DNA of 64,000 nt from a phage: NCBI GenBank assembly GCA_036252695.1, contig GCA_036252695.1_4122.1; one strand, given 5' to 3'. This document shows, in pieces, positions 7,752 to 26,022 of the stretch (within the stretch, counting starts at the first letter, position 1; every line of letters begins with the position of its first letter). The notes below the pieces were generated by a model. It saw only the letters and a program-made list of their open reading frames with translations. It was not told the DNA's origin and made no database searches. Both the position numbers and the translations under genes were made by a program.

Positions 7752-7757
7752 GTACAT

Positions 7758-7833: not shown

Positions 7834-7861
7834 TTGACATTACCACAAAAAGGCGTAGAAT
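7834..7861 (+). promoter_or_regulatory. sigma70 promoter with ~120-nt leader
   Basis: -35 TTGACA 7834-7839, -10 TAGAAT 7856-7861; leader resembles the 4922 leader family. Confidence 0.65.
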
Positions 7862-7984
7862 GTATTACATCAAGACGGGGAGCACTAAGTAGACCGCCAG
7901 TAAGTCGAACGAAAAACTGGACACGTCGAGAAAACTTTGATACACTAATAAACGTAAACTAAACTTTAATTGAGGATTTATAAA

Positions 7985-8467
7985 ATGGCTAATGTAAAAT
8001 CATTCATCAAAGCACTGGTAGCAAATGAAACTAACGTAGCGGCAGAGATCCTGGCTGAACTGGATAACGATACCATGAAAGCGGTACGCAATAATTTTAA
8101 CATCGCTTACAGTACTGCGAAAGAACTACAAGCAAATAAAGCGGCAGAAATTGAAGCGGCAAAGGCGGCCCGTGAAGCAGAACTACAAGCAACAATTGAA
8201 AGTATCCAGGCGGCAGTAGTTGGATTGGATCTGGAAGTAGTTACAGAGATGGCACAAAAAGCCCTGGCGGTTAAGTATGGGGAAGACAAGCCAGAAGTAA
8301 AAGCCAAAAAATGGATTCAGGAACGCGTAGCGGTAGTACTGGACAACGGGGAAGAATATCTGATTCCGGTGCGTGGTAACTGCATTGCGGTAGTACTGGA
8401 TGCGATTAACTCCAGTGGTATGACTCGCGAGGAATGGATCGAAGCTCATCGCAAAGTGGAAGCATAA
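7985..8467 (+). CDS. hypothetical Ala/Glu-rich protein (160 aa, coiled-coil-like)
   Basis: RBS gagga; KAAEIEAAKAAREAELQA segment. Confidence 0.7.
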   Translation: MANVKSFIKALVANETNVAAEILAELDNDTMKAVRNNFNIAYSTAKELQANKAAEIEAAKAAREAELQATIESIQAAVVGLDLEVVTEMAQKALAVKYGEDKPEVKAKKWIQERVAVVLDNGEEYLIPVRGNCIAVVLDAINSSGMTREEWIEAHRKVEA

Positions 8468-8488
8468 CAATTAAAGTACTGAATCACT

Positions 8489-8516
8489 AGCCCACTGCAT
8501 AAGTGGGCTTTTTTGT
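8489..8516 (+). terminator. intrinsic terminator
   Basis: gcccact...agtgggc hairpin + tttttt. Confidence 0.8.
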
Positions 8517-8668
8517 GTTTATCGTTTACCAGGCCACCAGCACCGCCTAGAATCGATTCTAACGCATTAAACTGATTATCTGATGCATCGCCCTAGCTGG
8601 TGGCGTTAAGGTCGTTAGAATGCGATTGAGAGCGTTTAAAGTATTTTGCAAAAAGTAATAAAAAGTAC

Positions 8669-8727
8669 TTGCACGATTAAGAGATTAGCGTATAATGTTT
8701 TACATCGAGAGGGGGAAACGGTTCTCC
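8669..8727 (+). promoter_or_regulatory. sigma70 promoter + 5' stem-loop cassette
   Basis: -35 TTGCAC 8669-8674, -10 TATAAT 8691-8696, GC hairpin. Confidence 0.7.
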
Positions 8728-8751
8728 TTCCAAATCAAAGGAATTAAAACA

Positions 8752-8979
8752 ATGGCTATCGTAATCACTCGCGTAACTGGTACTACTGGCAATTCTTCTA
8801 CTGTTGCTGTAATTACTAATAAGAAAGGTGCGGAACTACATTTTGCAATGTATAACTGGTCAGTTGATGAGTTTGGTCAGTACGCTAGTGTAGAATACAT
8901 TGAAACCTATCAAGTGCCGTCGATTAGTTTAACTGATTTGGGCGTTGAGCGTATCCTTTGCCTGGATGAATTAAATTAA
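8752..8979 (+). CDS. hypothetical early protein
   Basis: RBS aaagga; ORF track frame. Confidence 0.65.
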   Translation: MAIVITRVTGTTGNSSTVAVITNKKGAELHFAMYNWSVDEFGQYASVEYIETYQVPSISLTDLGVERILCLDELN

Positions 8980-8987
8980 AAAAGTAC

Positions 8988-9047
8988 TTGCAAAGTAAAT
9001 CGAATAAAGTATAATACATTACATCAAGGGGAGAAATGGTTCTCCCT
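8988..9047 (+). promoter_or_regulatory. sigma70 promoter + 5' stem-loop cassette
   Basis: -35 TTGCAA 8988-8993, -10 TATAAT 9010-9015, hairpin ggggagaaatggttctccc. Confidence 0.75.
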
Positions 9048-9065
9048 GATAATGAGGAAACTAAT

Positions 9066-9209
9066 ATGAAAACTTGTCAATGTGGTAAAAAATCTATTAC
9101 TGGTTTAAAGCGGGGCGTTGCTCTTTGTCAGTACCATTATAATTTACAAGTATGGGGTAAAGAATGGGCCGACCAGGTGGAAGCAGCAAAGAAAGCAAAA
9201 AGTAAGTAA
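9066..9209 (+). CDS. small Cys-rich protein (47 aa; not in ORF track)
   Basis: RBS gagga; MKTCQCGKK...LCQYHYN; own promoter cassette. Confidence 0.5.
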   Translation: MKTCQCGKKSITGLKRGVALCQYHYNLQVWGKEWADQVEAAKKAKSK

Positions 9210-9288
9210 AAATATTATCACAGTACTATTGACATAGTTTGATAGTACTGACATAATAGATTTTATCAAGACAACTGAGGAAAATAAA
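9208..9288 (+). repeat. duplicated ~80-bp promoter module (copies at 9502-9590 and 12580-12662)
   Basis: aaatattatcacagtactattgacatagtttgatagtactg(a/g)cataata in all three copies. Confidence 0.85.
9229..9257 (+). promoter_or_regulatory. sigma70 promoter
   Basis: -35 TTGACA 9229-9234, 17-nt spacer, -10 CATAAT 9252-9257. Confidence 0.7.
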
Positions 9289-9501
9289 ATGGCTATCATC
9301 ACTAAAATCAAAGTAAGTAAAACCCTGGTTAAACTTGAACAAGTGAAAGCAGGTTATAAAGTATCTTGGTGCGGTATGTATCGGATGTTCGCAGATATTG
9401 ATGAAGCAATCAATTATTACAGCGACACGGTTAAAAACTTTGTTCGTGCTGATGTGGTTATGGCAGTGGCAACGCACAAAGCAGCGAAAGAAAGTAAGTA
9501 A
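9289..9501 (+). CDS. hypothetical early protein (MAII family; paralog of 12663..12842)
   Basis: RBS gagga; ORF track. Confidence 0.65.
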   Translation: MAIITKIKVSKTLVKLEQVKAGYKVSWCGMYRMFADIDEAINYYSDTVKNFVRADVVMAVATHKAAKESK

Positions 9502-9520
9502 AAATATTATCACAGTACTA

Positions 9521-9549
9521 TTGACATAGTTTGATAGTACTGGCATAAT
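9521..9549 (+). promoter_or_regulatory. sigma70 promoter
   Basis: -35 TTGACA 9521-9526, -10 CATAAT 9544-9549. Confidence 0.7.
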
Positions 9550-9590
9550 AGATTTTATCAAGACAACATATTAATTTAAGGAATACAAAA

Positions 9591-9914
9591 ATGGCTAAAA
9601 CTATCATTAACACCGTTTCCCTGGCTGCAATCCGTGCAATCAATGTTGACGGTAAACGTTGGACTGATTCATATGGCAATACTTATCATTCTTGTCATGT
9701 AAGCGTCGAACTGGATAACGGTTTGAATGATCTGGCGGTTGAATCATTTACTTATGGCTATGAAGATGCATATCAACAAACGGCGTTAGATCTATTAAAG
9801 GAATCAGTAGACGGGCTTAATACTGATGAAACCTCCCTTACTCGTTTGTGCAATGATCTTAATATCCCGTTGCATTGTACTGTACAGAATGTTAAACGCA
9901 AAAAAGATCTTTAA
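9591..9914 (+). CDS. hypothetical early protein (paralog of 16675..16998)
   Basis: Shares RWTDSxGNTYHSC...ETFTYGY...KRKKD with 16675 gene. Confidence 0.7.
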   Translation: MAKTIINTVSLAAIRAINVDGKRWTDSYGNTYHSCHVSVELDNGLNDLAVESFTYGYEDAYQQTALDLLKESVDGLNTDETSLTRLCNDLNIPLHCTVQNVKRKKDL

Positions 9915-9994
9915 TTAGCTTTACTTTATGCAGATACTTTGATATAGTGTCTGCATAGGGGAAAGAAATTAAATTAACTTAAGAGGAACGTATA

Positions 9995-10264
9995 ATGAAA
10001 AATATCAGTACTTTAATCGATGCAGGTACTCATGTTCGTCGGTCTATGGTTGCAACCAGTACTACAAAACAAGTAGCGAGCGGTTATCTTGTATTTGTGC
10101 ACGATGGTAAACTCCTGGAACGTTCAATCAATTTTGATGTTAAAAACAATTGCCGTTTTATTATCTTTAAGCGTGAACAATATAAAATTGATTTACCAGC
10201 GAAGCCCATAAGCGGGGCGTACAACGTGCAATCATTGTTTGAACGTCAACCATACACCTATTAA
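9995..10264 (+). CDS. hypothetical early protein
   Basis: RBS aagagga; ORF track. Confidence 0.6.
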   Translation: MKNISTLIDAGTHVRRSMVATSTTKQVASGYLVFVHDGKLLERSINFDVKNNCRFIIFKREQYKIDLPAKPISGAYNVQSLFERQPYTY

Positions 10265-10315
10265 TCAAAACATCGTTAGCGGTCGATTTAGGCCGCTTGT
10301 ATTGGGGATTATACC

Positions 10316-10486
10316 ATGAACGTTAATCAAGTACTGAATGAGATCGAAAGCATCATTAAACCAATGAAACGCATTGATGCTATGTTAACACCGGAAGAAT
10401 GCCGCCTTTATGAGCGTTACAGTGTGGAACAAGCCCAGGAAATGGCCCGTATCCGTCCGGTTGCCAGTACTGATAAGGCGGCGTAA
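10316..10486 (+). CDS. small hypothetical protein (56 aa; not in ORF track)
   Basis: RBS tggggatt; stop overlaps next start (TAATATG). Confidence 0.45.
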   Translation: MNVNQVLNEIESIIKPMKRIDAMLTPEECRLYERYSVEQAQEMARIRPVASTDKAA

Positions 10487-10487
10487 T

Positions 10488-10697
10488 ATGCTTACTGTAC
10501 AGGATAAGATCGACATCTTAAAGGTTAATATGTATGTGATTGATGCCGTACCTGGTAAAGTATTTGCATACGATGATTCTAATCGCAGTCCGTTTTATTG
10601 CAGTCATGTAGTTGGATACGTGCCGTTGGCGTATGTTATAGAAAGAGTGGTTGATGCAGCATACAAACATTTTTTAGAAAATAATACTTGCAATTAG
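10488..10697 (+). CDS. hypothetical early protein
   Basis: In-frame ATG at 10488 within ORF 10410..10697; coupled to upstream ORF. Confidence 0.5.
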   Translation: MLTVQDKIDILKVNMYVIDAVPGKVFAYDDSNRSPFYCSHVVGYVPLAYVIERVVDAAYKHFLENNTCN

Positions 10698-10746
10698 TTT
10701 TCAGTACTGTATAATGATTTACATCGAGAGCGGGAATAGTTCCCGC
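10688..10746 (+). promoter_or_regulatory. sigma70 promoter + 5' stem-loop cassette
   Basis: -35 TTGCAA 10688-10693, -10 TATAAT 10710-10715, hairpin gcgggaatagttcccgc. Confidence 0.75.
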
Positions 10747-10767
10747 CTCACTTTTAAGGAATATGAA

Positions 10768-10914
10768 ATGAAAGCATCAAAAAAGAGTAATACTAAGAAA
10801 GCATGTTCACCTTTCGCTGGGGTATTCCCTTTACGTTTTGTTGATGAAGTAGTTTCCTACCCGCCGGGCCTTACTCCTGAGATGGTAGAAAGTTTGCGTA
10901 AATCTAAAAAATAG
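10768..10914 (+). CDS. small hypothetical protein
   Basis: RBS aagga; ATG 10768. Confidence 0.55.
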   Translation: MKASKKSNTKKACSPFAGVFPLRFVDEVVSYPPGLTPEMVESLRKSKK

Positions 10915-10917
10915 TAC

Positions 10918-10974
10918 TTGCAATTAGTTTTTAGTACTGTATAATAGTTTACATGAAGGGGAAAACGTTCCCCT
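10918..10974 (+). promoter_or_regulatory. sigma70 promoter + 5' stem-loop cassette
   Basis: -35 TTGCAA 10918-10923, -10 TATAAT 10940-10945, hairpin aggggaaaacgttcccct. Confidence 0.75.
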
Positions 10975-10996
10975 TACACCTAACGAGGAAAGTATA

Positions 10997-11248
10997 ATGG
11001 AAACAATTTTAATCAAAGACACTGCTACTACTGTAACTTATGATAATGATTGCATTATCCCAGGGACTGAGTACGGCGAACGTGTACCCGTTCAAGTAGA
11101 GATTGATACCACATACATCGACAAGGCTGACCAGTGTATCACTATTGTAATTGGTGAATATCGTTTTCTACCAGAAGAGATCCAAAAATGGCAGAATATG
11201 ATTGACCGTGCGAAATTAGTCGCACAAAGTTTAAAATACAAAGTTTAA
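10997..11248 (+). CDS. hypothetical early protein
   Basis: RBS gaggaa; ORF track. Confidence 0.65.
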   Translation: METILIKDTATTVTYDNDCIIPGTEYGERVPVQVEIDTTYIDKADQCITIVIGEYRFLPEEIQKWQNMIDRAKLVAQSLKYKV

Positions 11249-11256
11249 AATAATAC

Positions 11257-11316
11257 TTGCAATTAGTTTTTAAACGCGTATAATGTTTTACATGAAGGGG
11301 AGAAATGATTCTCCCC
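11257..11316 (+). promoter_or_regulatory. sigma70 promoter + 5' stem-loop cassette
   Basis: -35 TTGCAA 11257-11262, -10 TATAAT 11279-11284, hairpin ggggagaaatgattctcccc. Confidence 0.75.
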
Positions 11317-11334
11317 AATAACAGGAGAAACAAA

Positions 11335-11487
11335 ATGAAACAATACAACGCTCGGTTTGATGTTACTATCGGTAACGGCAAAGGTCAATTCTCTTTCAGT
11401 ACTCGCAAAAGTTATACAGAAAACTTCCTGCGTAATTGTGCACTGACCGCCGCACAAATTAAACATTACTTTCAGGCTAAAAAATGA
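11335..11487 (+). CDS. small hypothetical protein
   Basis: RBS caggag; ATG 11335. Confidence 0.55.
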   Translation: MKQYNARFDVTIGNGKGQFSFSTRKSYTENFLRNCALTAAQIKHYFQAKK

Positions 11488-11573
11488 AATCATTAGCTTA
11501 TTACAGTTCGGCCCTGGTCGGTGCATTGATCGCGGCGTTGTTAGTAACCTATCTATTCTTTATGGTGATTTAA
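11484..11573 (+). CDS. 29-aa hydrophobic micropeptide (putative single transmembrane helix)
   Basis: ATGA overlap with upstream stop; MKSLAYYSSALVGALIAALLVTYLFFMVI. Confidence 0.35.
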   Translation: MKSLAYYSSALVGALIAALLVTYLFFMVI

Positions 11574-11717
11574 ATGAATCCAACAGGTTTAAACTATAAA
11601 AGTTGTTCGGCGTTTACGAAAGCAAATAAAGCGAATGCACGTAAAGCGAAAGTAAAGGAGTACATCAAGCAAGGCATGACGCGAAAGGCGGCGATTCTAA
11701 AAGCTAAAAATAAATGA
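11574..11717 (+). CDS. 47-aa basic micropeptide
   Basis: Starts immediately after stop of preceding micropeptide; Lys-rich. Confidence 0.3.
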   Translation: MNPTGLNYKSCSAFTKANKANARKAKVKEYIKQGMTRKAAILKAKNK

Positions 11718-11910
11718 AAAAAGTGGTTGACTCCGGTCAGCCATTTTGCTATTATATATTCATTGAGAGATAGCTCACTAGCCCACAGGGTGCATAAGTG
11801 TATCTATTATATAAGTATTGAGTACTGAAAACTATTTTAAAAAAGTACTTGCAAACTATCTCAATAAGCGTATAATGTTTTACATCGAAAGGGGAAACGG
11901 TTTCCCCTGG
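11717..11910 (+). repeat. dispersed ~190-bp intergenic module (hairpin/promoter + AGCCCAC box + promoter cassette)
   Basis: Near-identical to 19012-19205; contains TTGACT 11727-11732 / TATTAT 11750-11755 inside a hairpin, and agcccacagggtgc. Confidence 0.85.
11849..11908 (+). promoter_or_regulatory. sigma70 promoter + 5' stem-loop cassette
   Basis: -35 TTGCAA 11849-11854, -10 TATAAT 11871-11876, hairpin aggggaaacggtttcccct. Confidence 0.75.
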
Positions 11911-11927
11911 TAATAAGGAAACAAATC

Positions 11928-12269
11928 ATGACTATCTCAATTGCTCAATCTAACTTTGAAAACGAAATCATCGCCCAGGCACTGCGTTTAAATGATGGTC
12001 GGGCCGAAATTAATTACGGTTTCAATTCAGGCGGTTGTGAAAAATATCAGTACTTTGTAACGGCTGATGGCGGTGTCCTGGGTATCAATACAGTTATTGT
12101 AAACATCCAAAAAATTAATTTCAATGATCCAGACGATAGCCAGTTTTACATCACTGGCGTAGACGTGAACTATGAGGATGACTCACTAACTGATGATCAC
12201 ACTGGCGAGCGGTTAGAAAGTGCATACGGTGAAGATGATTATCAGTCCGGTCCAGAAGATTTCGAATAA
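11928..12269 (+). CDS. hypothetical acidic protein
   Basis: RBS aaggaa; ORF track. Confidence 0.65.
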   Translation: MTISIAQSNFENEIIAQALRLNDGRAEINYGFNSGGCEKYQYFVTADGGVLGINTVIVNIQKINFNDPDDSQFYITGVDVNYEDDSLTDDHTGERLESAYGEDDYQSGPEDFE

Positions 12270-12284
12270 TATAAAAAAAATAGT

Positions 12285-12344
12285 TTGACAATAGATTATA
12301 GTACTGTATAATAGTTTACATCAAGGGGAGAAAAACTTCTCCCC
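12285..12344 (+). promoter_or_regulatory. sigma70 promoter + 5' stem-loop cassette
   Basis: -35 TTGACA 12285-12290, -10 TATAAT 12307-12312, hairpin ggggagaaaaacttctcccc. Confidence 0.75.
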
Positions 12345-12366
12345 ACTAACAGAGAGAGAAAACAAA

Positions 12367-12579
12367 ATGGCTAATATCCGGTCGAAATTAAAAAATGCAA
12401 AACAAGTTTTATTTTCAGATCATGAATACTTTAATAAAGATATTACAGGAGTTACAAGTATCAAGGAAGTAAAAGAAAAAACCGGCGTTTTGTGTGATGT
12501 GCGATTAGTTGGGACATTTGGGAATAACGTGCTATATCGCTGCGGTGATTACAATTTTACACTGACTATCATTAACTAA
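12367..12579 (+). CDS. hypothetical early protein
   Basis: RBS agagaga; ORF track. Confidence 0.6.
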   Translation: MANIRSKLKNAKQVLFSDHEYFNKDITGVTSIKEVKEKTGVLCDVRLVGTFGNNVLYRCGDYNFTLTIIN

Positions 12580-12598
12580 AAATATTATCACAGTACTA

Positions 12599-12627
12599 TT
12601 GACATAGTTTGATAGTACTGACATAAT
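12599..12627 (+). promoter_or_regulatory. sigma70 promoter
   Basis: -35 TTGACA 12599-12604, -10 CATAAT 12622-12627 (third copy of the 9208 module). Confidence 0.7.
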
Positions 12628-12662
12628 AACTTTTATCAACTACACTACTAAGGAATTAAAAA

Positions 12663-12842
12663 ATGGCTATCATCGCAAAAACTGAAATCGTTGGTCTGGA
12701 TTCTATCATCATGACGTTTGAAGATCAAAAAGGTATGTATGTAGTTTCCTATGGTGATTATGTTCGGGAGTATGAAACGGTAGACGAAGCCTTTGAAAGT
12801 TATATTCGCCAGGTGAATAAAGCATACGACGACTACCGCTAA
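12663..12842 (+). CDS. small protein (59 aa; MAII family; not in ORF track)
   Basis: RBS aaggaa; MAIIAKTEIV... resembles 9289 gene N-terminus. Confidence 0.5.
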   Translation: MAIIAKTEIVGLDSIIMTFEDQKGMYVVSYGDYVREYETVDEAFESYIRQVNKAYDDYR

Positions 12843-12869
12843 AATATATTACCAGTACTATTAAATCTA

Positions 12870-12897
12870 TTGACAACGTTTGATAGTACTGTATAAT
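12870..12897 (+). promoter_or_regulatory. sigma70 promoter
   Basis: -35 TTGACA 12870-12875, -10 TATAAT 12892-12897. Confidence 0.7.
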
Positions 12898-12941
12898 AAG
12901 TTTTATAAACAGTAGTTAACTTAACCTAAGAGAGAAATAAA

Positions 12942-13085
12942 ATGATCGCACTGGATTCATTCATCGACGCAGTACTGGCAAAAACTGGCGAGGATCTGAC
13001 CGCAGAACAATACGCGATGATCGAGCAATGTCAGCAAAACGGTAAATCGGTGAAAGATACTGTTAAGATTATCCGCAAGATGTAA
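12942..13085 (+). CDS. small hypothetical protein (47 aa; not in ORF track)
   Basis: RBS aagagaga; terminator-like hairpin follows. Confidence 0.45.
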   Translation: MIALDSFIDAVLAKTGEDLTAEQYAMIEQCQQNGKSVKDTVKIIRKM

Positions 13086-13091
13086 GATTAT

Positions 13092-13125
13092 AGCCCACTG
13101 GTTAACGCTGGTGGGCTTTAATCAT
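13092..13125 (+). terminator. possible intrinsic terminator
   Basis: agcccactgg...ctggtgggct hairpin; weak T tract. Confidence 0.4.
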
Positions 13126-13190
13126 TTACCCTATACAATGCCAGTACTAAACCGTTTATCTCGTTAGAATGCGTTACAGGACGTTTAACA

Positions 13191-13388
13191 ATGATTAGCA
13201 TGAAATCAGTACAAAAACAAATAGAAACATTATCAAAAATTAAACGTAAACAATACTCCTTAGAATATACAATCAATGGTAACTATCATCTAATGAAAGA
13301 AAATAATTTTATAGTCATTGATGAATCATTGCAAATTATTAGTATAGTACTGAAAGCATTAATCAATGACAGAAAAAAATTAAAATAA
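13191..13388 (+). CDS. hypothetical AT-rich small protein
   Basis: ORF track; weak RBS; composition differs from neighbours. Confidence 0.35.
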   Translation: MISMKSVQKQIETLSKIKRKQYSLEYTINGNYHLMKENNFIVIDESLQIISIVLKALINDRKKLK

Positions 13389-13392
13389 TCTA

Positions 13393-13421
13393 TTGACAAT
13401 ATCCTCCAGTACTGGCATAAT
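13393..13421 (+). promoter_or_regulatory. sigma70 promoter with ~300-nt leader
   Basis: -35 TTGACA 13393-13398, -10 CATAAT 13416-13421. Confidence 0.6.
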
Positions 13422-13481
13422 ACTTACATCAAGACGAGAACGTCACTAACCCATAGGGTGCACAAATGTAACTATATAATA

Positions 13482-13558
13482 TCGATCAATAAATGATCAA
13501 AAAAGTACTGGATCAATTTAGCATAAGGAGTATAATTCTGATCAATTCTTGATCAAAG
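13482..13558. repeat. cluster of five GATCAA motifs (Dam-site cluster)
   Basis: GATCAA at 13484, 13495, 13511, 13540, 13551. Confidence 0.7.
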
Positions 13559-13717
13559 GCAATAAACGCAGTTGAATTTATATAGACAATACGAAGGCGT
13601 TACTATCCGTGGTAATGCTGGTGGATATGTAGTATCATGTGGTTTGAATAAGATTAGCACTAGTAGTATTATTGTAGCATTACAGTACTATAGTATTTTT
13701 ATAATGAGGTTAAAATA

Positions 13718-13975
13718 ATGGCTGTAGGATTTGCGAAGGACGGGGCCGAACAAGACGAGATTAACGCAGTGATTCAGGCCGCCGTAAACCACGCTAGAAA
13801 GCAAATTAACGCACAAATAGAATCACTGATACATTGCCTCGACTGTGGCGATAAAATCCCTGAGAATCGCCGCCAGGCTGTTAAGGGATGTAAGTACTGC
13901 ATAACTTGCCAGGAGGATCATGATAGTACTTTTAAAAGAGATCCGCGTAATTGTTGGCATAGATCTATGAGATAA
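13718..13975 (+). CDS. DksA/TraR-family C4 zinc-finger protein
   Basis: CLDCGDKIPENRRQAVKGCKYCITCQ fits the C-x2-C-x17-C-x2-C TraR/DksA zinc-finger pattern. Confidence 0.6.
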   Translation: MAVGFAKDGAEQDEINAVIQAAVNHARKQINAQIESLIHCLDCGDKIPENRRQAVKGCKYCITCQEDHDSTFKRDPRNCWHRSMR

Positions 13976-13981
13976 AAAGTA

Positions 13982-14009
13982 TTGACAGTACTGAAAGATA
14001 GTGTATAAT
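13982..14009 (+). promoter_or_regulatory. sigma70 promoter
   Basis: -35 TTGACA 13982-13987, -10 TATAAT 14004-14009. Confidence 0.7.
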
Positions 14010-14038
14010 ATTTTATATCTTAACTGAGGATAGTAATC

Positions 14039-14395
14039 ATGGGAATACAACATATCACGCGTACTACTGACAATGGTGAGATCACTGGCTATCAAGTACA
14101 GGGCAAAGTAGCACAATTGCAGTACTGGTTTGAAAAACGTGGAATCATTGCACCGGATCTTGATTATGACCGTGTAGCGTTTATTGATTCTCTTTATGTT
14201 GATCCTGATAGTCGGGGCAATGGTGAAGGTAACGAATTAATGAATGCCTTTATCGATGCCGCCGATGATTCAGATTGTATCATCTTAGAATGCGATACGG
14301 GAGAAGATAACGCCTTTAATCTTAAAGAATGGTACGAAGGTTTTGGATTCGAGGTACTGATCGATAGTGAATATCCTATCATGATTTTATCATAG
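14039..14395 (+). CDS. putative small GNAT-family acetyltransferase
   Basis: RGNGEGNELM (motif A-like R-G-x-G-x-G) and NAFNLKEWYEGFGF (motif B-like); 118 aa. Confidence 0.45.
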   Translation: MGIQHITRTTDNGEITGYQVQGKVAQLQYWFEKRGIIAPDLDYDRVAFIDSLYVDPDSRGNGEGNELMNAFIDAADDSDCIILECDTGEDNAFNLKEWYEGFGFEVLIDSEYPIMILS

Positions 14396-14398
14396 TAC

Positions 14399-14466
14399 TT
14401 GCATTTAGTTTTCAGTACTGTTATAGTACTTACATCAAGGGGAAACGTCTTCCCCTACTAAGAGGA
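14399..14466 (+). promoter_or_regulatory. sigma70 promoter + 5' stem-loop cassette
   Basis: -35 TTGCAT 14399-14404, -10 TTATAG 14421-14426, hairpin aggggaaacgtcttcccct. Confidence 0.6.
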
Positions 14467-14473
14467 AATGAAA

Positions 14474-14662
14474 ATGGAAAACTTATCAAGTATTTTAGTA
14501 CAAGATGATTTCGGTAATCCTGGAAGTGCTATCATAGTTCGGGGCAATAAAGCAACGTTTGTTCTTGCTGGTGGGCCAGTACAGCGTAGCATTAAAAATA
14601 ATGCTGTTACCATTAATAATGTACGCTATCGCTTAGATAAAGAATTAATTAAAAATATGTAA
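14474..14662 (+). CDS. small hypothetical protein
   Basis: RBS aagagga 8 nt upstream of ATG 14474. Confidence 0.55.
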   Translation: MENLSSILVQDDFGNPGSAIIVRGNKATFVLAGGPVQRSIKNNAVTINNVRYRLDKELIKNM

Positions 14663-14687
14663 TATTAACTCAATAGGAAAACGATAA

Positions 14688-15011
14688 ATGTATATTCACA
14701 CTACTATCACAAAAGAAGTCCGTTGTCAATTCGAAAGTATCCCAGGTGTATGTTTCATTACAGGCACTTTCTCACCTGGTGACCGTGATAATCCAGTACT
14801 GTTACAATTACGCCATCCATCATGGGATAAAGCATTTGATCTACCGTTGAATGAATTCGCAACTACTGCTGAAAAGTACATTAAAAATATTCGCGAGAAT
14901 GATCGACTATTCATTAATGCTTTCAGTGATTCCGCGTTAAGCGAGATTCATGCGGTACTAGTTGCAATCATGGAATCAATGCAGAAAACTAAATTCAAAC
15001 AAGGTGAATAA
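14688..15011 (+). CDS. hypothetical early protein
   Basis: RBS aggaaaa; ORF track. Confidence 0.6.
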   Translation: MYIHTTITKEVRCQFESIPGVCFITGTFSPGDRDNPVLLQLRHPSWDKAFDLPLNEFATTAEKYIKNIRENDRLFINAFSDSALSEIHAVLVAIMESMQKTKFKQGE

Positions 15012-15017
15012 AAACTA

Positions 15018-15076
15018 TTGACAATGCAATCCAGTACTGTATAATAAGTTACATGAAGGGGAGAAATGATTCTCCC
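15018..15076 (+). promoter_or_regulatory. sigma70 promoter + 5' stem-loop cassette
   Basis: -35 TTGACA 15018-15023, -10 TATAAT 15040-15045, hairpin ggggagaaatgattctcccc. Confidence 0.75.
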
Positions 15077-15095
15077 CAGTACTGAGGAAAGAAAA

Positions 15096-15308
15096 ATGCA
15101 AGGTCAACTAATCGTTCGTAAATGGTCTGATACTAACGCTAAACCGTGGGATGTACAATACATCGCCCCCAATGGTGAATCCAGATATCAACCAGGTGTA
15201 ACGCATAGTACTGAGCAATTTGCCGCCGCTCACCGTGAACGACTGTTACAATCCATGCAGCAAGGCTTCGGTGAAAAATTCATTCAGGATCATTGGCTGA
15301 AAGATTAA
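15096..15308 (+). CDS. hypothetical early protein
   Basis: RBS gaggaaa; ATG 15096. Confidence 0.6.
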   Translation: MQGQLIVRKWSDTNAKPWDVQYIAPNGESRYQPGVTHSTEQFAAAHRERLLQSMQQGFGEKFIQDHWLKD

Positions 15309-15315
15309 AAAGTAC

Positions 15316-15374
15316 TTGCACAGTACTGAATAAAGTGTATAATGTTTTATATCGAGAGGGGAACTATTCCCCTC
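15316..15374 (+). promoter_or_regulatory. sigma70 promoter + 5' stem-loop cassette
   Basis: -35 TTGCAC 15316-15321, -10 TATAAT 15338-15343, hairpin gaggggaactattcccctc. Confidence 0.7.
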
Positions 15375-15394
15375 CTAACAAAAAGGAAAGTATA

Positions 15395-15568
15395 ATGATC
15401 CAAGTAGAATTATCAGTACTGAAAGATCTATTTTATCGGTTAGGTACTAATGGCGAGTATCCTAAAAGTGATACCGCAAAACTTTTTGTATCACTCGACT
15501 TATGGCAACGCGAACAATTAGTAATGTCGTGGCGTAAAGGTAAAGCAGATCGCGAGGTGAAAGCATGA
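15395..15568 (+). CDS. small hypothetical protein
   Basis: RBS aaggaaa; ATG 15395. Confidence 0.55.
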   Translation: MIQVELSVLKDLFYRLGTNGEYPKSDTAKLFVSLDLWQREQLVMSWRKGKADREVKA

Positions 15569-15714
15569 AAGAATTCTTATTCGAAGTAGTGTTTCAAGGT
15601 GTCGGTAGTAACCAACTGATTCGCTCAAGTGGTTATAATGTTAACCAGGCATGGAATAACATTAAACAAATGTACCCGAACGCTATCACATATCGCAACC
15701 CGAAAGAAGTTTAA
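15565..15714 (+). CDS. small hypothetical protein (49 aa; not in ORF track)
   Basis: ATGA overlap with upstream stop; MKEFLFEVVFQGV... Confidence 0.35.
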   Translation: MKEFLFEVVFQGVGSNQLIRSSGYNVNQAWNNIKQMYPNAITYRNPKEV

Positions 15715-15724
15715 AAATAATTGA

Positions 15725-15900
15725 AAAAGGGATTGACTCCGGTCAATCCCTTTGCTATTATATACGCATAGAAACAAATTAGCCCACCGGGTGCATAAAT
15801 GTATCTATTGTTTGCTGGTGGCTAGTACTATCAAGTACTGAAAACTATTTTTAAAAAAGTACTTGCATTGTACTTAGAATCAAGTATAATGTTTTACATC
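15725..15900 (+). repeat. dispersed ~175-bp intergenic module (copy similar to 20941-21105)
   Basis: Perfect hairpin gggattgactccggtcaatccc with embedded TTGACT/TATTAT; agcccaccgggtgc box. Confidence 0.85.
15864..15890 (+). promoter_or_regulatory. sigma70 promoter (upstream of conserved leader copy 2)
   Basis: -35 TTGCAT 15864-15869, -10 TATAAT 15885-15890. Confidence 0.65.
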
Positions 15901-15976
15901 AGGACGGGGAACGAAATAAGTAACTTCCCGTTAAGTAGTCCAGGAGTAAGACATACGAAAAACTCCCCTGATAAAA
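15897..15976 (+). ncRNA. candidate small RNA / structured leader, copy 2
   Basis: Near-identical to 4922-5000 with a few substitutions; between tandem promoters. Confidence 0.25.
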
Positions 15977-15980
15977 TAGT

Positions 15981-16008
15981 TTGACAATAGAAATTAAACG
16001 AGTATAAT
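15981..16008 (+). promoter_or_regulatory. sigma70 promoter
   Basis: -35 TTGACA 15981-15986, -10 TATAAT 16003-16008. Confidence 0.7.
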
Positions 16009-16040
16009 ACTTACATCAACCACTGATAAGGAAACATAAA

Positions 16041-16316
16041 ATGCGGATTCTACTGACAGCTAACGAAATCGAACAAGTACTGACTACTAACCTGGAAGAC
16101 TGGAAACGTGAAGCAGATATCCAGTCGGTTCAATGGCTTAACGATAAGTTAACGCCGGATGACTTAAGCAAGATTGTAGATCCTCAATTCTACGAAGATA
16201 TCCACGACACCGCGTTAAGCGTCGAGGATGTACTAGATAAGCACTTTATTGATACAGATTTGCAGGTTTACGGTCGTAAAAACTTTATCACTATTCACGA
16301 CATTTACAATACTTAA
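16041..16316 (+). CDS. hypothetical acidic protein
   Basis: RBS aaggaaa; ORF track. Confidence 0.65.
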   Translation: MRILLTANEIEQVLTTNLEDWKREADIQSVQWLNDKLTPDDLSKIVDPQFYEDIHDTALSVEDVLDKHFIDTDLQVYGRKNFITIHDIYNT

Positions 16317-16319
16317 GTA

Positions 16320-16382
16320 TTGACAAAGTATCTTAGTACTGTATAATAGTTTACATCAAGTGAGGGGAAACGGTTCCCCTCC
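16320..16382 (+). promoter_or_regulatory. sigma70 promoter + 5' stem-loop cassette
   Basis: -35 TTGACA 16320-16325, -10 TATAAT 16342-16347, hairpin gaggggaaacggttcccctc; duplicated at 16591. Confidence 0.75.
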
Positions 16383-16404
16383 TAACAAAGAGAGAGAAAT
16401 AAAA

Positions 16405-16587
16405 ATGGCTAAGTGCACTATCTGCAAGAAAGAAATAGTATTAGTTCCAAGTGCCCGTGAACGTGCCGCTCGGTTTGGTGGCAAAGCGTCAGACTATACA
16501 AAAATGTTTACTGCCCATACAGCTTGCCAGGTAGCAAAACGTTCACAAGAAAGCGTAGAATTAATGCGTAAACTTTCCAAAAAATAA
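16405..16587 (+). CDS. small Cys-containing protein (possible zinc ribbon)
   Basis: MAKCTICKKE...HTACQ; RBS agagagaga. Confidence 0.55.
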   Translation: MAKCTICKKEIVLVPSARERAARFGGKASDYTKMFTAHTACQVAKRSQESVELMRKLSKK

Positions 16588-16590
16588 GTA

Positions 16591-16652
16591 TTGACAAAGT
16601 ATCTTAGTACTGTATAATAGTTTACATCAAGTGAGGGGAATGGTTCCCCTCC
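16591..16652 (+). promoter_or_regulatory. sigma70 promoter + 5' stem-loop cassette
   Basis: -35 TTGACA 16591-16596, -10 TATAAT 16613-16618, hairpin gaggggaatggttcccctc. Confidence 0.75.
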
Positions 16653-16674
16653 TAACAAAAAGAGAGAAATTAAA

Positions 16675-16998
16675 ATGACTATGATCCTTACCCAGAAAGT
16701 AGAAATGAAAATTGTAACTTCCTTTGACATTAAAGTTAATCGGTGGACTGATAGCCACGGCAATACTTACCACTCATGCTACGTGTCTGCATTGATTGGT
16801 GACCGCTGGGAAGACCTGGGACATGAAACCTTTACTTACGGTTACGGTACACAAGGCGAATACACGGGCTTGGAGATCATTAAAGAAACCGTTATAGGTT
16901 TCAACCCGAAAGAAAAAGTTATTCACCGCATCGAGGAAGAGATCAACAAAGAAATTACAGTTCGTTACTACGATGTAAAACGTAAGAAAGACATGTAA
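16675..16998 (+). CDS. hypothetical early protein (paralog of 9591..9914)
   Basis: NRWTDSHGNTYHSC...ETFTYGYG...VKRKKDM. Confidence 0.7.
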   Translation: MTMILTQKVEMKIVTSFDIKVNRWTDSHGNTYHSCYVSALIGDRWEDLGHETFTYGYGTQGEYTGLEIIKETVIGFNPKEKVIHRIEEEINKEITVRYYDVKRKKDM

Positions 16999-17020
16999 TA
17001 GAATCCATTTAAAGTACTAT

Positions 17021-17049
17021 TTGACATTGCCCAGATAGTACTTTATAAT
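17021..17049 (+). promoter_or_regulatory. sigma70 promoter
   Basis: -35 TTGACA 17021-17026, 17-nt spacer, -10 TATAAT 17044-17049. Confidence 0.7.
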
Positions 17050-17097
17050 AGACTCTAACTTGTAGTACTAATTAACTTAACTAATAGGATGTACACC

Positions 17098-17493
17098 ATG
17101 ATTACTAAATTCTTCGCTACCCGTGAACAAGCTCGCATCGTTGCCCGTGAAGAAGGTGAAACATTTAAAGACATGGGCAAAGATGCACCGAAAGGACAAC
17201 GCTGGGCGGTACAGTTCAAAGAGATCTCTGATATTGTGAATTCACCTGAACCAGTACTTACTGAAGCAGAACTGAAGAAAGCTCAAGAACTGGCTGAAGT
17301 ACTGAACGCTCAAGATGACTTCTTGAAAGGTTCTGATATTCAAGTACAAGTGAATAGTAATGCATGGACTCACGCGGATCACCTGGCAAACCTTAAGCGT
17401 CCAAGTGAACTGATTCGTAACCAGAAAGAGATTCGTCATGACCGTAAAGGAAACCGTGTAACAGTATACAGTAAACGCCGCCAGGTTATCTAA
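17098..17493 (+). CDS. hypothetical early protein (paralog of 4056..4322)
   Basis: FATREQARIVAREEGETFKDMG...RKGNRVTVY. Confidence 0.65.
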   Translation: MITKFFATREQARIVAREEGETFKDMGKDAPKGQRWAVQFKEISDIVNSPEPVLTEAELKKAQELAEVLNAQDDFLKGSDIQVQVNSNAWTHADHLANLKRPSELIRNQKEIRHDRKGNRVTVYSKRRQVI

Positions 17494-17516
17494 TAACTTT
17501 GCAGTACTAACAACAC

Positions 17517-17542
17517 GGCGGGAACTATTCCCGCCTTTTTTA
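17517..17542 (+). terminator. intrinsic terminator
   Basis: ggcgggaactattcccgcc + ttttttat. Confidence 0.7.
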
Positions 17543-17555
17543 TAGGATAAACAAA

Positions 17556-17810
17556 ATGATTAAGGTTCAACTATCAAACGATAATGTATTACGGGTACAC
17601 TATAAAGCCCCACAGAGAATCATCACAAAGGCCGTACAGCTTGCTAATGAGTTTATTAATGGTAGTCTATTGCCTAGGAAGTTAAGCAACGGGAAACTAC
17701 GTGTTATCGATGTAGACACTAACAATAGAATAGTGATCGAGAGTACTGGAAAAATTAATCTATATGAACACCAACAATACAATAAAAAAATAAAACTAAT
17801 ATCACGTTGA
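17556..17810 (+). CDS. hypothetical protein
   Basis: RBS aggataa; ORF track. Confidence 0.55.
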   Translation: MIKVQLSNDNVLRVHYKAPQRIITKAVQLANEFINGSLLPRKLSNGKLRVIDVDTNNRIVIESTGKINLYEHQQYNKKIKLISR

Positions 17811-17835
17811 CAGTACTCAAATGTTTTAGTATTAT
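17807..17835 (+). promoter_or_regulatory. sigma70 promoter
   Basis: -35 TTGACA 17807-17812, -10 TATTAT 17830-17835; module duplicated at 18088. Confidence 0.65.
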
Positions 17836-17868
17836 GTATCTATACCAACACAGAGAGAGAGAAACAAA

Positions 17869-18087
17869 ATGAAATTATCTAAAATCGAAAAGAAAACTAT
17901 TGATGAAGCAGTGAAGCACGGTTATACCTTTCGTAATGATTCACACTTCACTAGTTTTCAACAGGGAAACCGTACCATCAAAAAACTCATTGATAAAGGT
18001 TTACTCACTAAGGTTGATAACGGGAACGGTGTAGAATATCAACCGACAGAAGACGCATTATCACTAAAGAAATATTCTATTATCTAA
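17869..18087 (+). CDS. hypothetical protein
   Basis: RBS agagagaga; ORF track. Confidence 0.6.
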   Translation: MKLSKIEKKTIDEAVKHGYTFRNDSHFTSFQQGNRTIKKLIDKGLLTKVDNGNGVEYQPTEDALSLKKYSII

Positions 18088-18116
18088 TTGACAGTACTCA
18101 AATGTTTTAGTACTAT
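18088..18116 (+). promoter_or_regulatory. sigma70 promoter
   Basis: -35 TTGACA 18088-18093, -10 TACTAT 18111-18116. Confidence 0.6.
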
Positions 18117-18144
18117 GTACGCATACCAACACGGGGAAAACAAA

Positions 18145-18387
18145 ATGATTACTTTAGAAAAACGTATCAAAGAGACTACAACGCTGGTGGAACTGTTAAC
18201 CGTTCTTAAATGCCGGGTAACTCCATTCAGTACACCGGACTTTATCAACATGGTGGACGTTAACGGTCGATATCGTATTGCGGTCGAACAAGGTACGGCA
18301 AAAGTATTCAGTACTAAAAATACGCGTGAAGTATTCCACGCAGTTCAAGTAAAAAAAGTAGTTGCCATTGATAGTAAAGTACTGTAA
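18145..18387 (+). CDS. hypothetical protein
   Basis: ATG 18145 after acggggaaaacaaa RBS region. Confidence 0.55.
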   Translation: MITLEKRIKETTTLVELLTVLKCRVTPFSTPDFINMVDVNGRYRIAVEQGTAKVFSTKNTREVFHAVQVKKVVAIDSKVL

Positions 18388-18418
18388 TATAGTTTCATTA
18401 ACTCAAGGAGTCAACACA

Positions 18419-19003
18419 ATGCGTAACTATACTAAATTCATCCGTTCACTTCATGCAATGGAAACCAACAAAGAGATCCTTTCAGCTTGTCGGTTAGCTG
18501 GACTGGAGATCGTCGGTGCGGGTTCTTCCCGTATTGTATTCGCTTTAAATGATCGGTTAGTGATTAAGGTCGCGAATTGTGATGCGGGTGTAGAACAAAA
18601 TGAAACTGAATGTAAGGTATGGAATTTTTTAGATTATGACCGTCCGCACCTTAAACAGTACTTTGCTAAAGTGCATATGCATTTATGCGATCCTGATAAT
18701 CTGTTTATTGTTATGGATCGTTTGAGTACTGCAAGCAAAGGCAGTGTAAAGCATGTAAACGCGTGCAATGAGTTAAAGTACAATATTAAACGTAATACGG
18801 TAGAACGCCATCACCATTTCGCTGATGCTCTCAATCACGTTGATGATACATTATCCACACTAACGATAAGAGATATCAGAAAACAGAATATCGGCCAGGA
18901 TCGCAACGGCTTGATTAAAGTACTTGATTACGGTTTAACCCGCAATATCTGGAATCAGTACTATAAAAAACGTGATGTTAACGCGATAACTATAACACGA
19001 TAA
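18419..19003 (+). CDS. putative minimal Ser/Thr protein-kinase-like protein
   Basis: Gly-rich loop GAGSSRIVF, VIKV lysine, catalytic-loop-like IRDIRKQNI, DFG-like LDYG; RBS aaggag. Confidence 0.45.
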   Translation: MRNYTKFIRSLHAMETNKEILSACRLAGLEIVGAGSSRIVFALNDRLVIKVANCDAGVEQNETECKVWNFLDYDRPHLKQYFAKVHMHLCDPDNLFIVMDRLSTASKGSVKHVNACNELKYNIKRNTVERHHHFADALNHVDDTLSTLTIRDIRKQNIGQDRNGLIKVLDYGLTRNIWNQYYKKRDVNAITITR

Positions 19004-19011
19004 AAAAGATT

Positions 19012-19205
19012 AAAAAAGGGATTGACTCCAGTCAGTCCCTTTGCTATTATATATTCATTGAGAGATAACTCACTGACCCATAGGGTGCGGAAGTGTATCT
19101 ATTATATAAGTATTCAGTACTGAAAACTATTTTATAAAAAGTACTTGCAAACTATCTCAATGAGCGTATAATGTTTTATATCGAGAGGGGGAAATGGTTC
19201 TCCCT
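19012..19205 (+). repeat. dispersed ~190-bp intergenic module (near-identical to 11717-11910)
   Basis: Same hairpin/promoter, acccatagggtgcgg box and promoter cassette. Confidence 0.85.
19145..19205 (+). promoter_or_regulatory. sigma70 promoter + 5' stem-loop cassette
   Basis: -35 TTGCAA 19145-19150, -10 TATAAT 19167-19172, hairpin agggggaaatggttctccct. Confidence 0.75.
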
Positions 19206-19227
19206 GGTACTAAAAGGAATCAAGACG

Positions 19228-19449
19228 ATGACTACTATGACATGCGTTCACGCTTCAAATCTTCTGAATGATGCAGCATTTAAAGCAGGTGAAGAATATC
19301 AATGCTATCGGGATGAAAATAAAAAAGTTTTCGTCGTTGATGCTAACGGTTTCCATATTGAATTACAATCCGGCTTCACTGGTGTTGATGGTAAATCAGT
19401 ATGGGGCGTACAGGATGATAACGGTACATATCATTTTAAACGTAATTAA
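19228..19449 (+). CDS. hypothetical early protein
   Basis: RBS aaaagga; ATG 19228. Confidence 0.6.
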   Translation: MTTMTCVHASNLLNDAAFKAGEEYQCYRDENKKVFVVDANGFHIELQSGFTGVDGKSVWGVQDDNGTYHFKRN

Positions 19450-19452
19450 GTA

Positions 19453-19511
19453 TTGACAAAGTATATCAGTACTGTATAATAGTTTACATCAAGGGGAGAA
19501 TAGCTCTCCCC
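19453..19511 (+). promoter_or_regulatory. sigma70 promoter + 5' stem-loop cassette
   Basis: -35 TTGACA 19453-19458, -10 TATAAT 19475-19480, hairpin ggggagaatagctctcccc. Confidence 0.75.
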
Positions 19512-19533
19512 ACCAATAAAAGGAAACAAAATT

Positions 19534-19806
19534 ATGTCCAGCTACTCCGCTACTATGATTATTAAAGATATGAACGGTAATCCTACTTCTGCTGGTGGAT
19601 CATTTGGTAACATTAATTTAGATGGGCGGTTATCAATTGAATCAGCCATCAATGCAGCGAAAGAAGTTTTTAAGAATGAATGTACTGTAAGCAAACTGGA
19701 TTATATGGGCTTCGCTATCGAGAAAACTAATCGTTTTGTGGACTACAAAAAACCACTGATGATTGATACTAACCTGAAAGCAAACGAAGTGGAATACTTA
19801 TTATGA
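19534..19806 (+). CDS. hypothetical early protein
   Basis: RBS aaaggaaa; ORF track. Confidence 0.65.
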   Translation: MSSYSATMIIKDMNGNPTSAGGSFGNINLDGRLSIESAINAAKEVFKNECTVSKLDYMGFAIEKTNRFVDYKKPLMIDTNLKANEVEYLL

Positions 19807-19994
19807 CAGTAGAAGAAGTTAAAAAAGTACTGGCAGTACTACGCTATCATAATCATTGTAAGGTGAAGAATGATCCTGATTATCTTGATTCATCGCTGGA
19901 AGAGGATACACTACAAGCAATAAGCCATATGCAAAAAATGCTTAAGCGTATGACCGAAAAGAACAGGCCGGACTATATCGGAAATAAAATTTAA
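19803..19994 (+). CDS. hypothetical protein
   Basis: ATGA start/stop overlap with upstream gene. Confidence 0.5.
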   Translation: MTVEEVKKVLAVLRYHNHCKVKNDPDYLDSSLEEDTLQAISHMQKMLKRMTEKNRPDYIGNKI

Positions 19995-26021: not shown

Positions 26022-26022
26022 C

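Follow-up and report, generated by a model that had tools for sequence, protein, structure and literature searches.

A lytic-phage clade of the YbiI branch of TraR/DksA-type zinc-finger proteins, encoded by an Asteriusvirus-type jumbo coliphage

Introduction

Phage proteins of the TraR/DksA type are an established route by which mobile elements redirect host RNA polymerase (RNAP) without setting off synthesis of guanosine tetraphosphate (ppGpp). F-plasmid TraR consists of an N-terminal helix that carries the motif DxxDxA to the active site, a Cys4 globule, and a C-terminal helix placed on the beta-lobe/Si1 (PMC9239242, PMC6970531). R48 of TraR binds the beta-prime rim helices, and E46, R49 and K50 contact beta-prime Si3 (PMC9239242, PMC6970531). 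S2 lies 4.3 Å from the catalytic Mg (PMC6970531). Five phage homologues (lambda Orf73, P2 Orf82, VP882 Orf61, VHML Orf8 and X. bovienii Gp34) were tested previously; all five bound RNAP at the DksA site, two of them with an imperfect DxxDxA, and inhibited rrnB P1 (PMC9239242). For the YbiI branch of the family, the only published functional datum is that YbiI at high expression rescues the amino-acid auxotrophy of a dksA-null strain, given as 'data not shown' (PMC2613031). Here we describe an 85-residue phage member of that branch, encoded at 13718..13975 of a 64,000-nucleotide (nt) stretch of phage DNA (GenBank assembly GCA_036252695.1, contig GCA_036252695.1_4122.1), the whole of which is called the window below.

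Literature searches on 'DksA-like' phage proteins returned nothing beyond the Gourse-lab papers, those on YbiI function returned regulon lists and, for the most part, ytterbium chemistry, and those on Asteriusvirus transcription returned nothing useful. Membership of the gene in the TraR/DksA superfamily was already known and is annotated in sister phages. The modest value of the present analysis lies in sub-classification: the YbiI branch keeps the RNAP-docking residues and swaps the DxxDxA tip for a different, extremely conserved N-terminus. At stake is what the 'DksA-like' labels of E. coli ybiI and of hundreds of lytic phage genomes stand for: regulation as by TraR, a blocked channel or another function.

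Family and branch assignment

The gene is a single ATG-start open reading frame (ORF) of 85 amino acids (aa; MAVGFAKDGAEQDEINAVIQAAVNHARKQINAQIESLIHCLDCGDKIPENRRQAVKGCKYCITCQEDHDSTFKRDPRNCWHRSMR), the stop codon being included in the coordinates. The Cys4 string quoted in the original prediction, CLDCGDKIPENRRQAVKGCKYCITCQ, was found within it as residues 40-65. The cysteines are laid out as CxxC-17-CxxC, a spacing equal to that of F-plasmid TraR.

On the strength of this motif the original prediction had assigned the protein to the TraR/DksA family and had proposed a Pfam scan as a check. In that scan PF01258 (zf-dskA_traR) was matched at E 1.1e-11 with 45 bits, the gathering score being 24.9, residues 39-68 lying on profile positions 5-34 of 36, and the family call is upheld. 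A Pfam 'Cystatin' match of 15 bits, below the cut-off, was set aside as noise. PHROG 54, 'DksA-like zinc-finger protein', was matched at E 3.8e-19. The best NCBIfam model was NF008243 (YbiI family / PRK11019) with 82.2 bits over residues 1-73, below the equivalog cut-off of 96. TIGR02419 (TraR) gave 52.8 bits, under its cut-off of 59.7, and the TraR equivalog NF010268 gave 31.4 bits against 108. The test for DksA proper failed, with 16.2 bits for NF033459 (DksA_like) against a cut-off of 105. The nearest solved structure by sequence was E. coli YbiI (2KGO; E 2.7e-12, residues 1-69), followed by TraR in the RNAP complexes 6N57 and 5W1S (E ~9e-6).

A search of 5.8 billion proteins yielded 58 relatives in two groups. 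The first contains 45 sequences of 84-87 aa at 63-99% identity, and its named members are from Asteriusvirus-like and T4-like phages; the second contains 13 sequences of bacterial YbiI type (88-92 aa, 42-52% identity). An exhaustive profile search gave 2,574 cluster representatives at E <= 1e-3, and the whole phage clade fell into a single 50%-identity cluster. Membership of the protein in PF01258, and within it in the YbiI branch, is considered practically certain. Judged by sequence, its closest relatives are E. coli YbiI and the NF008243 family rather than TraR, and the protein is best described as belonging to a lytic-phage clade of the YbiI branch. At this level, the new points are the sub-classification into the YbiI branch and the clade-specific E11, E14 and RNCWHRSMR, and nothing else; they were drawn from sequence alignment.

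Conserved residues

The DxxDxA tip motif was absent from the first 20 residues of the 85-aa protein and of the best 150 family representatives. TraR D3-E-A-D6-E-A8 aligns with V-G-F-A-K-D, and the nearest pattern in the phage protein is D8-G-A-E11-Q-D13. The control, a translated Orf73-like protein of Stx phage 86 (orf48), carries D3-I-I-D6-S-A8. What stands at the N-terminus instead is the YbiI-family signature MAxG(F/W)AxDGAxQ, to which MAVGFAKDGAEQ conforms. Over phage and bacterial members M1, A2 and G4 do not vary, and conservation is 90% or more at K7, D8, G9, A10 and Q12. The two groups part at position 11, which is E in 44 of 45 phage sequences and V in all 13 bacterial YbiI sequences, and at position 14 (E in 45/45 phage versus Q in 13/13 bacterial sequences).

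Common to both groups are R27, the four cysteines, I47-P48-E49-x-R51-R52, G57, Q65 and D69. The cysteines C40, C43, C61 and C64 are invariant in 58 of 58 aligned homologues, align with those of TraR, and are predicted to bind zinc. Like I47, R51, R52, G57 and Q65, they are the same in all the sequences compared, whether from phages, bacterial YbiI, TraR or Stx-phage Orf73-like proteins. R51 and R52 correspond to TraR R48 and R49, and E49 to TraR E46; these positions are invariant or nearly so.

The C-terminal tail separates the groups again. Seven of the nine positions of RNCWHRSMR (R77, N78, C79, W80, H81, R82 and M84) are invariant in 45/45 phage sequences, and the bacterial YbiI tail is RRGSKDSQLR. 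The C-terminal signature of the YbiI family, YNRRGSKDSQLR, is lacking in the 85-aa protein, the phage clade having PRNCWHRSMR there. An intermediate tail, ...NRKVWHRSMR, occurs in one metagenomic sequence (P0136) and suggests that the phage and bacterial tails are homologous.

A truncated, chimeric form of the gene was seen in Escherichia phage vB_EcoM-RPN187 (Mosigvirus), and also in JN02, as a 54-aa chimera MLYDYTGKSEDGVLELLPESAEDDMVV-IYCVGCQSMHDEIFKREPRNCWHRSMR in the syntenic position downstream of tk (1417-1581 of the RPN187 locus). Of the zinc-finger protein it retains the second CxxC and the invariant tail and nothing more, joined to an unrelated acidic N-terminus; its PHROG is phrog_25948. 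Either the chimera is a remnant in decay, or it shows that the tail can work alone.

Predicted structure

An AlphaFold2 model was built on the 58-sequence alignment (mean predicted local distance difference test score, pLDDT, 74; predicted template modelling score, pTM, 0.42). Helices were predicted at residues 8-31, 49-54 and 62-71, and the first seven residues are non-helical. The top Foldseek match of the model was YbiI (E 3e-5). RNAP-bound TraR (6N57_M) was matched with a target-normalised template modelling (TM) score of 0.65 and a root-mean-square deviation of 3.1 Å over 67 columns, and RNAP-bound DksA (7KHI_M) more weakly, with a TMq of 0.54. The modelled fold thus agrees with the family call, to TraR more closely than to DksA.

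The position of the N-terminus in RNAP was derived from residue counts. Counted relative to the first cysteine, the N-terminus is ~3 residues longer than that of TraR. Since S2 of TraR is already so near the catalytic Mg, an identical binding pose is therefore unlikely; if docked as TraR is, the 85-aa protein would be unable to place its N-terminus identically.

Selection and distribution among phages

The zinc-finger gene is under strong purifying selection. Its ratio of nonsynonymous to synonymous substitution rates (dN/dS) comes to 0.11 in comparison with two Asteriusvirus orthologues and to 0.17 in comparison with Salmonella phage 7t3. For T4-like phage 212, saturation has been reached at synonymous sites, and protein identity is still 66%. 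The start codon is fixed by the first 12 residues, because these are kept in the bacterial homologues. The chance that the ORF is spurious or decaying, with a zinc-finger-like motif by accident, is negligible: its small size and the truncated remnant in Mosigvirus would suit such a reading, and it is ruled out by profile E values of 1e-11 to 1e-23, the dN/dS of 0.11-0.17, a good ribosome-binding site and full-length orthologues in hundreds of phage genomes.

Megablast of window positions 13000-15000 returned 42 phage records, the best being Escherichia phage vB_EcoM_JNE01 (95.9% identity). The best matches listed were phages of 347-386 kb, and those whose taxonomy was read are Asteriusvirus. 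The window is from an Asteriusvirus-type jumbo coliphage, in line with the phage origin claimed in the original prediction. In several relatives the orthologue is annotated as 'DksA-like zinc-finger protein', 'TraR/DksA C4-type zinc finger protein' or 'C-4 type zinc finger protein'. By tblastn, matches were found in 675 phage records, among them a translated match of 100% identity in phage ECO103 4-12-1, whose record is unannotated. Many T4-like phages have orthologues at 58-74% identity, and in the one examined the orthologue lies in a small-ORF region downstream of tk. The gene thus occurs in very different lytic myovirus lineages. A tblastn link to Orf73-like proteins of Stx phages (~48% identity) extends over the zinc-finger half.

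Proposed mechanism and alternative readings

Binding of the 85-aa protein in the secondary channel of RNAP is what we infer, and it is held to be reasonably probable. In the proposed sequence of events, host sigma-70 RNAP would make the protein early, from the terminal-repeat region of the jumbo coliphage. With its conserved P-E-x-R-R segment the Cys4 globule would sit on the beta-prime rim helices where the secondary channel opens, and the long N-terminal helix would extend through the channel in the direction of the active site. In this way the protein would take the site of DksA, GreA and GreB and alter initiation by host RNAP. Its action could be a TraR-like inhibition of rRNA and ribosomal-protein (r-protein) promoters, freeing RNAP for phage consensus promoters with AT-rich discriminators, or a different action of the family-specific N-terminus. 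Once bound, it might regulate through D8-x-x-E11-x-x-E14, exclude DksA, ppGpp site 2 and the Gre factors, or disturb the active site by its longer N-terminus. Docking at the channel mouth is favoured because the segment best conserved with TraR is the docking segment; the binding of all five tested phage homologues to the DksA site (PMC9239242) and the reported rescue by YbiI (PMC2613031) serve as precedents.

Several points weigh against secondary-channel binding of the TraR kind. The tip aspartates are needed for the activity of TraR, Orf73 and DksA, though not for binding of DksA (PMC9239242), and DxxDxA is absent here. For VHML Orf8 it has been suggested that an N-terminal extension makes the protein less active (PMC9239242), and the ~3 additional residues of the present protein make the TraR pose unlikely, as described above. 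Some zinc-finger 'DksA homologues' without DxxDxA are inactive. The protein scores under the NCBIfam cut-offs for both TraR and YbiI. The confidence of the model, by the pLDDT and pTM given above, is only moderate, and in it the C-terminal helix appears to be ~10 residues long against 16 in TraR, unrelated in sequence and followed by an unrelated tail.

The original prediction had gone further and proposed that such an RNAP binder could reprogram host transcription, at stringent-control promoters for example. The family part of that proposal stands; the functional part is plausible by homology and is weakened by the absence of the DxxDxA tip, on which the activity of TraR and lambda Orf73 depends (PMC9239242). 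In its fullest form the protein would be a ppGpp-independent equivalent of DksA plus ppGpp, inhibiting promoters of rRNA and r-protein genes and activating amino-acid promoters, with D8-x-x-E11-x-x-E14 in place of DxxDxA. This is put forward tentatively, as a possibility well short of probable. It would agree with the TraR-like predicted fold and the conserved RR segment, and E11 (44/45) with E14 (45/45) would give a D-x-x-E at the first helix turn resembling the DxxExA tip of Gre factors. The rescue of dksA-null auxotrophy by YbiI (PMC2613031) points the same way, and lambda Orf73 raises phage yield by such a route (PMC9239242). However, the strict motif is absent and the register is off, D8 being 32 residues before the first cysteine, whereas D3 and D6 of TraR are 34 and 31 residues before it. 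Seven additional, conserved residues, predicted to be non-helical, precede D8, and the finding that D-to-N changes alone cripple Orf73 (PMC9239242) indicates that small changes in tip geometry matter.

Rather less likely, the protein would bind the DksA/Gre site without tip chemistry. By excluding DksA (with ppGpp site 2), GreA and GreB it could render RNAP insensitive to a stringent response provoked by infection, or its longer N-terminus could plug the active site and shut RNAP off. This would suit a binding segment that is conserved and a tip that is not, and an N-terminus three residues longer than that of TraR, whose S2 is already 4.3 Å from the Mg; Rnk offers an example of a competitor for the secondary channel that has no activity of its own. 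Against this, residues 1-14 are conserved to an extreme degree, which would be hard to account for in an inert plug, and the reported complementation of dksA-null by YbiI implies DksA-like activity and not antagonism (PMC2613031).

It is unlikely that the protein acts outside RNAP altogether, its zinc ribbon and conserved termini binding some other partner (an iron or metal process, a phage or host protein, or nucleic acid) and its likeness to TraR being one of shared fold only. The location of ybiI in an iron-metabolism operon would suit this, and Blankschien et al. favoured an iron-related role for YbiI (PMC2613031). Some PF01258 proteins without DxxDxA do not act like DksA, and TraR of VP882 works as a complex with another protein, QisA. 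The tail RNCWHRSMR has no counterpart in TraR, and it is this tail, with the second CxxC, that the Mosigvirus chimera keeps. However, the segment best conserved with TraR, IPE-x-RR...PG(V/C)..C..CQ, is precisely the RNAP-contacting one, members of the family are found mainly in phages and hosts of enterobacterial type, in which RNAP has the Si1 and Si3 insertions, and the inactive examples cited are longer proteins that also have no C-terminal helix.

An equally doubtful suggestion is that the lytic-phage clade (jumbo phages of Asteriusvirus and many T4-like phages) is a functionally distinct secondary-channel effector. Its N-terminus AVGFAKDGAEQxE would reach into or past the catalytic centre and its tail RNCWHRSMR would grip a surface that TraR does not use, giving a host shut-off or anti-stringent factor unlike TraR and DksA. 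If true, this would provide a first function for the widespread bacterial YbiI family.

Genome context and promoters

Coordinates of the features of the gene and its upstream region are given in Table 1. The orthologue in phage vB_Ec-M-J is at 12349-12606, within an annotated direct terminal repeat of 21,525 bp. By BLAST against vB_Ec-M-J the first base of the repeat is window position 1576, and collinearity runs past the end of the repeat near 22.7 kb. Where the ends of relatives have been mapped, the gene lies ~12 kb from the terminus of the genome, and each virion DNA has two copies of it. Window positions 1-1575 lie to the left of the physical genome end of vB_Ec-M-J; the first 2 kb have a GC content of 0.34 and the only negative GC skew of the window, which seems to come from an assembly running through the terminus.

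The gene is surrounded by small + strand ORFs, most with their own promoter. The window has 13 perfect TTGACA-N16-18-TATAAT sites where 0.23 would be expected, and all but two of them, 11, are between 5 and 21 kb. A promoter family at 5006-20670 (e.g. 12285, 12870, 13982, 15018, 15981, 16320, 16591, 19453 and 20643) has the form TTGACA-16-TATAAT. AGTACTG stands directly before the -10 hexamer in most of its members; an A-rich stretch upstream is common to them, and all have an AT-rich discriminator/start region such as ACTTACATCAA or AGTTTACATCAA. A hairpin in the 5' untranslated region, GGGGAGAA-N4-TTCTCCCC, often follows, and this hairpin DNA accounts for the recurring 'GENHFSPSC/GGEPFP' peptides of spurious minus-strand ORFs. 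The consensus architecture would permit transcription by unmodified host sigma-70 RNAP and so points to early genes; the zinc-finger gene is probably expressed early.

Promoters with consensus hexamers and AT-rich discriminators should resist inhibition of the TraR type, given what is known of promoters sensitive to DksA and ppGpp. The phage promoters are of this kind and should therefore resist it. Such resistance would fit the logic, proposed for lambda Orf73, of diverting RNAP from rRNA to phage transcription.

The zinc-finger gene itself is an exception in promoter layout, with an upstream region of 300 bp. The candidate promoter at 13393..13421 is conserved in 4 relatives, and the start region downstream, ACTTACATCAAG, is as in the perfect-consensus promoters. 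The 298-nt putative leader folded no more stably than its shuffled versions (z -0.5), giving no evidence for a structured riboregulator. No terminator was found after the gene, and the next consensus promoter begins 7 nt past the stop codon.

Table 1. Positions of the zinc-finger gene, its protein segments and nearby elements in the window
Feature	Positions	Strand	Remarks
Zinc-finger gene	13718..13975	+	
N-terminal segment MAVGFAKDGAEQDE, residues 1-14	13718..13759	+	No helix predicted for residues 1-7; the long helix opens with an acidic stripe of D8, E11 and E14
Predicted long N-terminal helix, residues 8-31	13739..13810	+	Equivalent to TraR-N, the helix that extends down the RNAP secondary channel; AlphaFold2 and superposition on 6N57_M
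C4 zinc-finger/globular region, residues 40-65	13835..13912	+	C40, C43, C61 and C64, with I47-P48-E49-x-R51-R52
Predicted short C-terminal helix, residues 62-71	13901..13930	+	Counterpart of TraR-C; AlphaFold2 model
Phage-clade C-terminal tail FKRDPRNCWHRSMR, residues 72-85	13931..13972	+	Low model confidence; forms phrog_25948
Shine-Dalgarno sequence GAGG	13706..13709	+	8 nt 5' of the ATG; read from sequence; unchanged in 4 Asteriusvirus relatives
Candidate promoter TTGACA-17-CATAAT, extended -10 TG	13393..13421	+	AGTACTG-type family; consensus match only; would give a ~290-nt leader
Alternative weak promoter-like site TTGAAT-17-TATTAT (9/12)	13644..13672	+	46 nt 5' of the ATG; consensus match only
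Possible 48-codon upstream ORF, TTG start	13572..13718	+	TAA overlaps the zinc-finger ATG as TAATG
GNAT-family acetyltransferase gene	14039-14395		118 aa; Pfam PF00583, 37 bits; directly downstream, own perfect promoter at 13982
DUF7247 gene	14688-15011		Pfam match

Although DNA identity to SP27 is ~60%, the frame of the 48-codon upstream ORF is open there too, beginning with GTG; its dN/dS is 0.32, and its YVVSCGL block has synonymous changes only. Phage CMSTMSU is the only one in which it has been called as a coding sequence, and Pfam gave no match. It may be a genuine micro-gene with translational coupling.

The upstream gap also contains the sole GATC cluster of the 64-kb window, with five GATCAA sites in 68 bp (13484-13551). 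Two 27-nt direct repeats, TATAAT-N3-GATCAAT-N3-TGATCAAA, make up its layout (13475-13501 and 13531-13557). GATC is under-represented outside the cluster, with 138 observed in the window versus 199 expected. The first part of the cluster is kept in relatives, and the last two sites are missing in SP27. It may be a Dam/SeqA-sensitive or operator-like element. Either this cluster or the upstream small ORF as a conserved partner of the gene was considered and rejected; Salmonella phage 7t3 has a different upstream gene.

Downstream, the GNAT gene adjoins the zinc-finger gene in the Asteriusvirus records examined. A PADLOC search with the zinc-finger protein and the adjacent GNAT protein gave no match, and no link to a known defence system was seen. 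Pfam searches of 10 neighbouring small ORFs identified only the GNAT and DUF7247 proteins, with no functional operon partner. Rfam at gathering thresholds and ARAGORN returned nothing for the whole window.

Further features were recorded elsewhere in the window. A hairpin with a 12-bp stem, AAAG(G/T)G(A/G)TTGACTCCGGTCA...TTT followed by GCTATTATAT, is repeated at 11720-11755 and 15726-15761. It is terminator-like, and its stem holds the TTGACT -35 element of the next promoter (TTGACT-17-TATTAT), making a combined terminator and promoter module. After the terminal-repeat region, at ~24000-29000, ORFs of ~70-85 aa are tightly packed and overlapping. At ~39800-58600 there is a run of ~40 back-to-back + strand ORFs of 140-200 aa with a GC content of ~0.30-0.33, which look like paralogue arrays.

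Comparison with known systems

With E. coli YbiI (2KGO) the phage protein shares the N-terminus MAxG(F/W)AKDGAxQ, the helix length, the spacing CxxC-17-CxxC, the segment IPEARRQAV and D69. The phage clade differs from YbiI in having E11 and E14 where YbiI has V11 and Q14, and in ending (F)KRxPRNCWHRSMR where bacterial YbiI ends YNRRGSKDSQLR. Unlike the chromosomal ybiI, the gene is phage-borne and probably expressed early.

With F-plasmid TraR (6N57, 5W1S) it shares the spacing of the cysteines and its nature as a small mobile-element protein; the moderate-confidence model suggests a similar three-element architecture. R27 (TraR R24), E49, R51, R52, G57 and Q65 are conserved between them. Overall identity is 26%, and unlike TraR the protein lacks DxxDxA and has an N-terminus longer by ~3 residues, with a GFAK segment predicted to be non-helical, and, in the model, a shorter C-terminal helix followed by a 14-residue tail.

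Like lambda Orf73, P2 Orf82, VP882 Orf61, VHML Orf8 and X. bovienii Gp34, it is a phage-encoded member of PF01258. Those five are proteins of 60-82 aa from temperate phages with a complete or near-complete DxxDxA, whereas the present clade is from jumbo and T4-like phages of strictly lytic type and has no such motif. With DksA (1TJL, 5VSW, 7KHI) it shares the zinc-finger Pfam domain and a weak structural match. DksA is a protein of 151 aa that has DxxDxA at the tip of a coiled coil of two helices, ppGpp-contact residues and a distinct C-terminal helix, whereas the phage protein has 85 aa and a single N-terminal helix.

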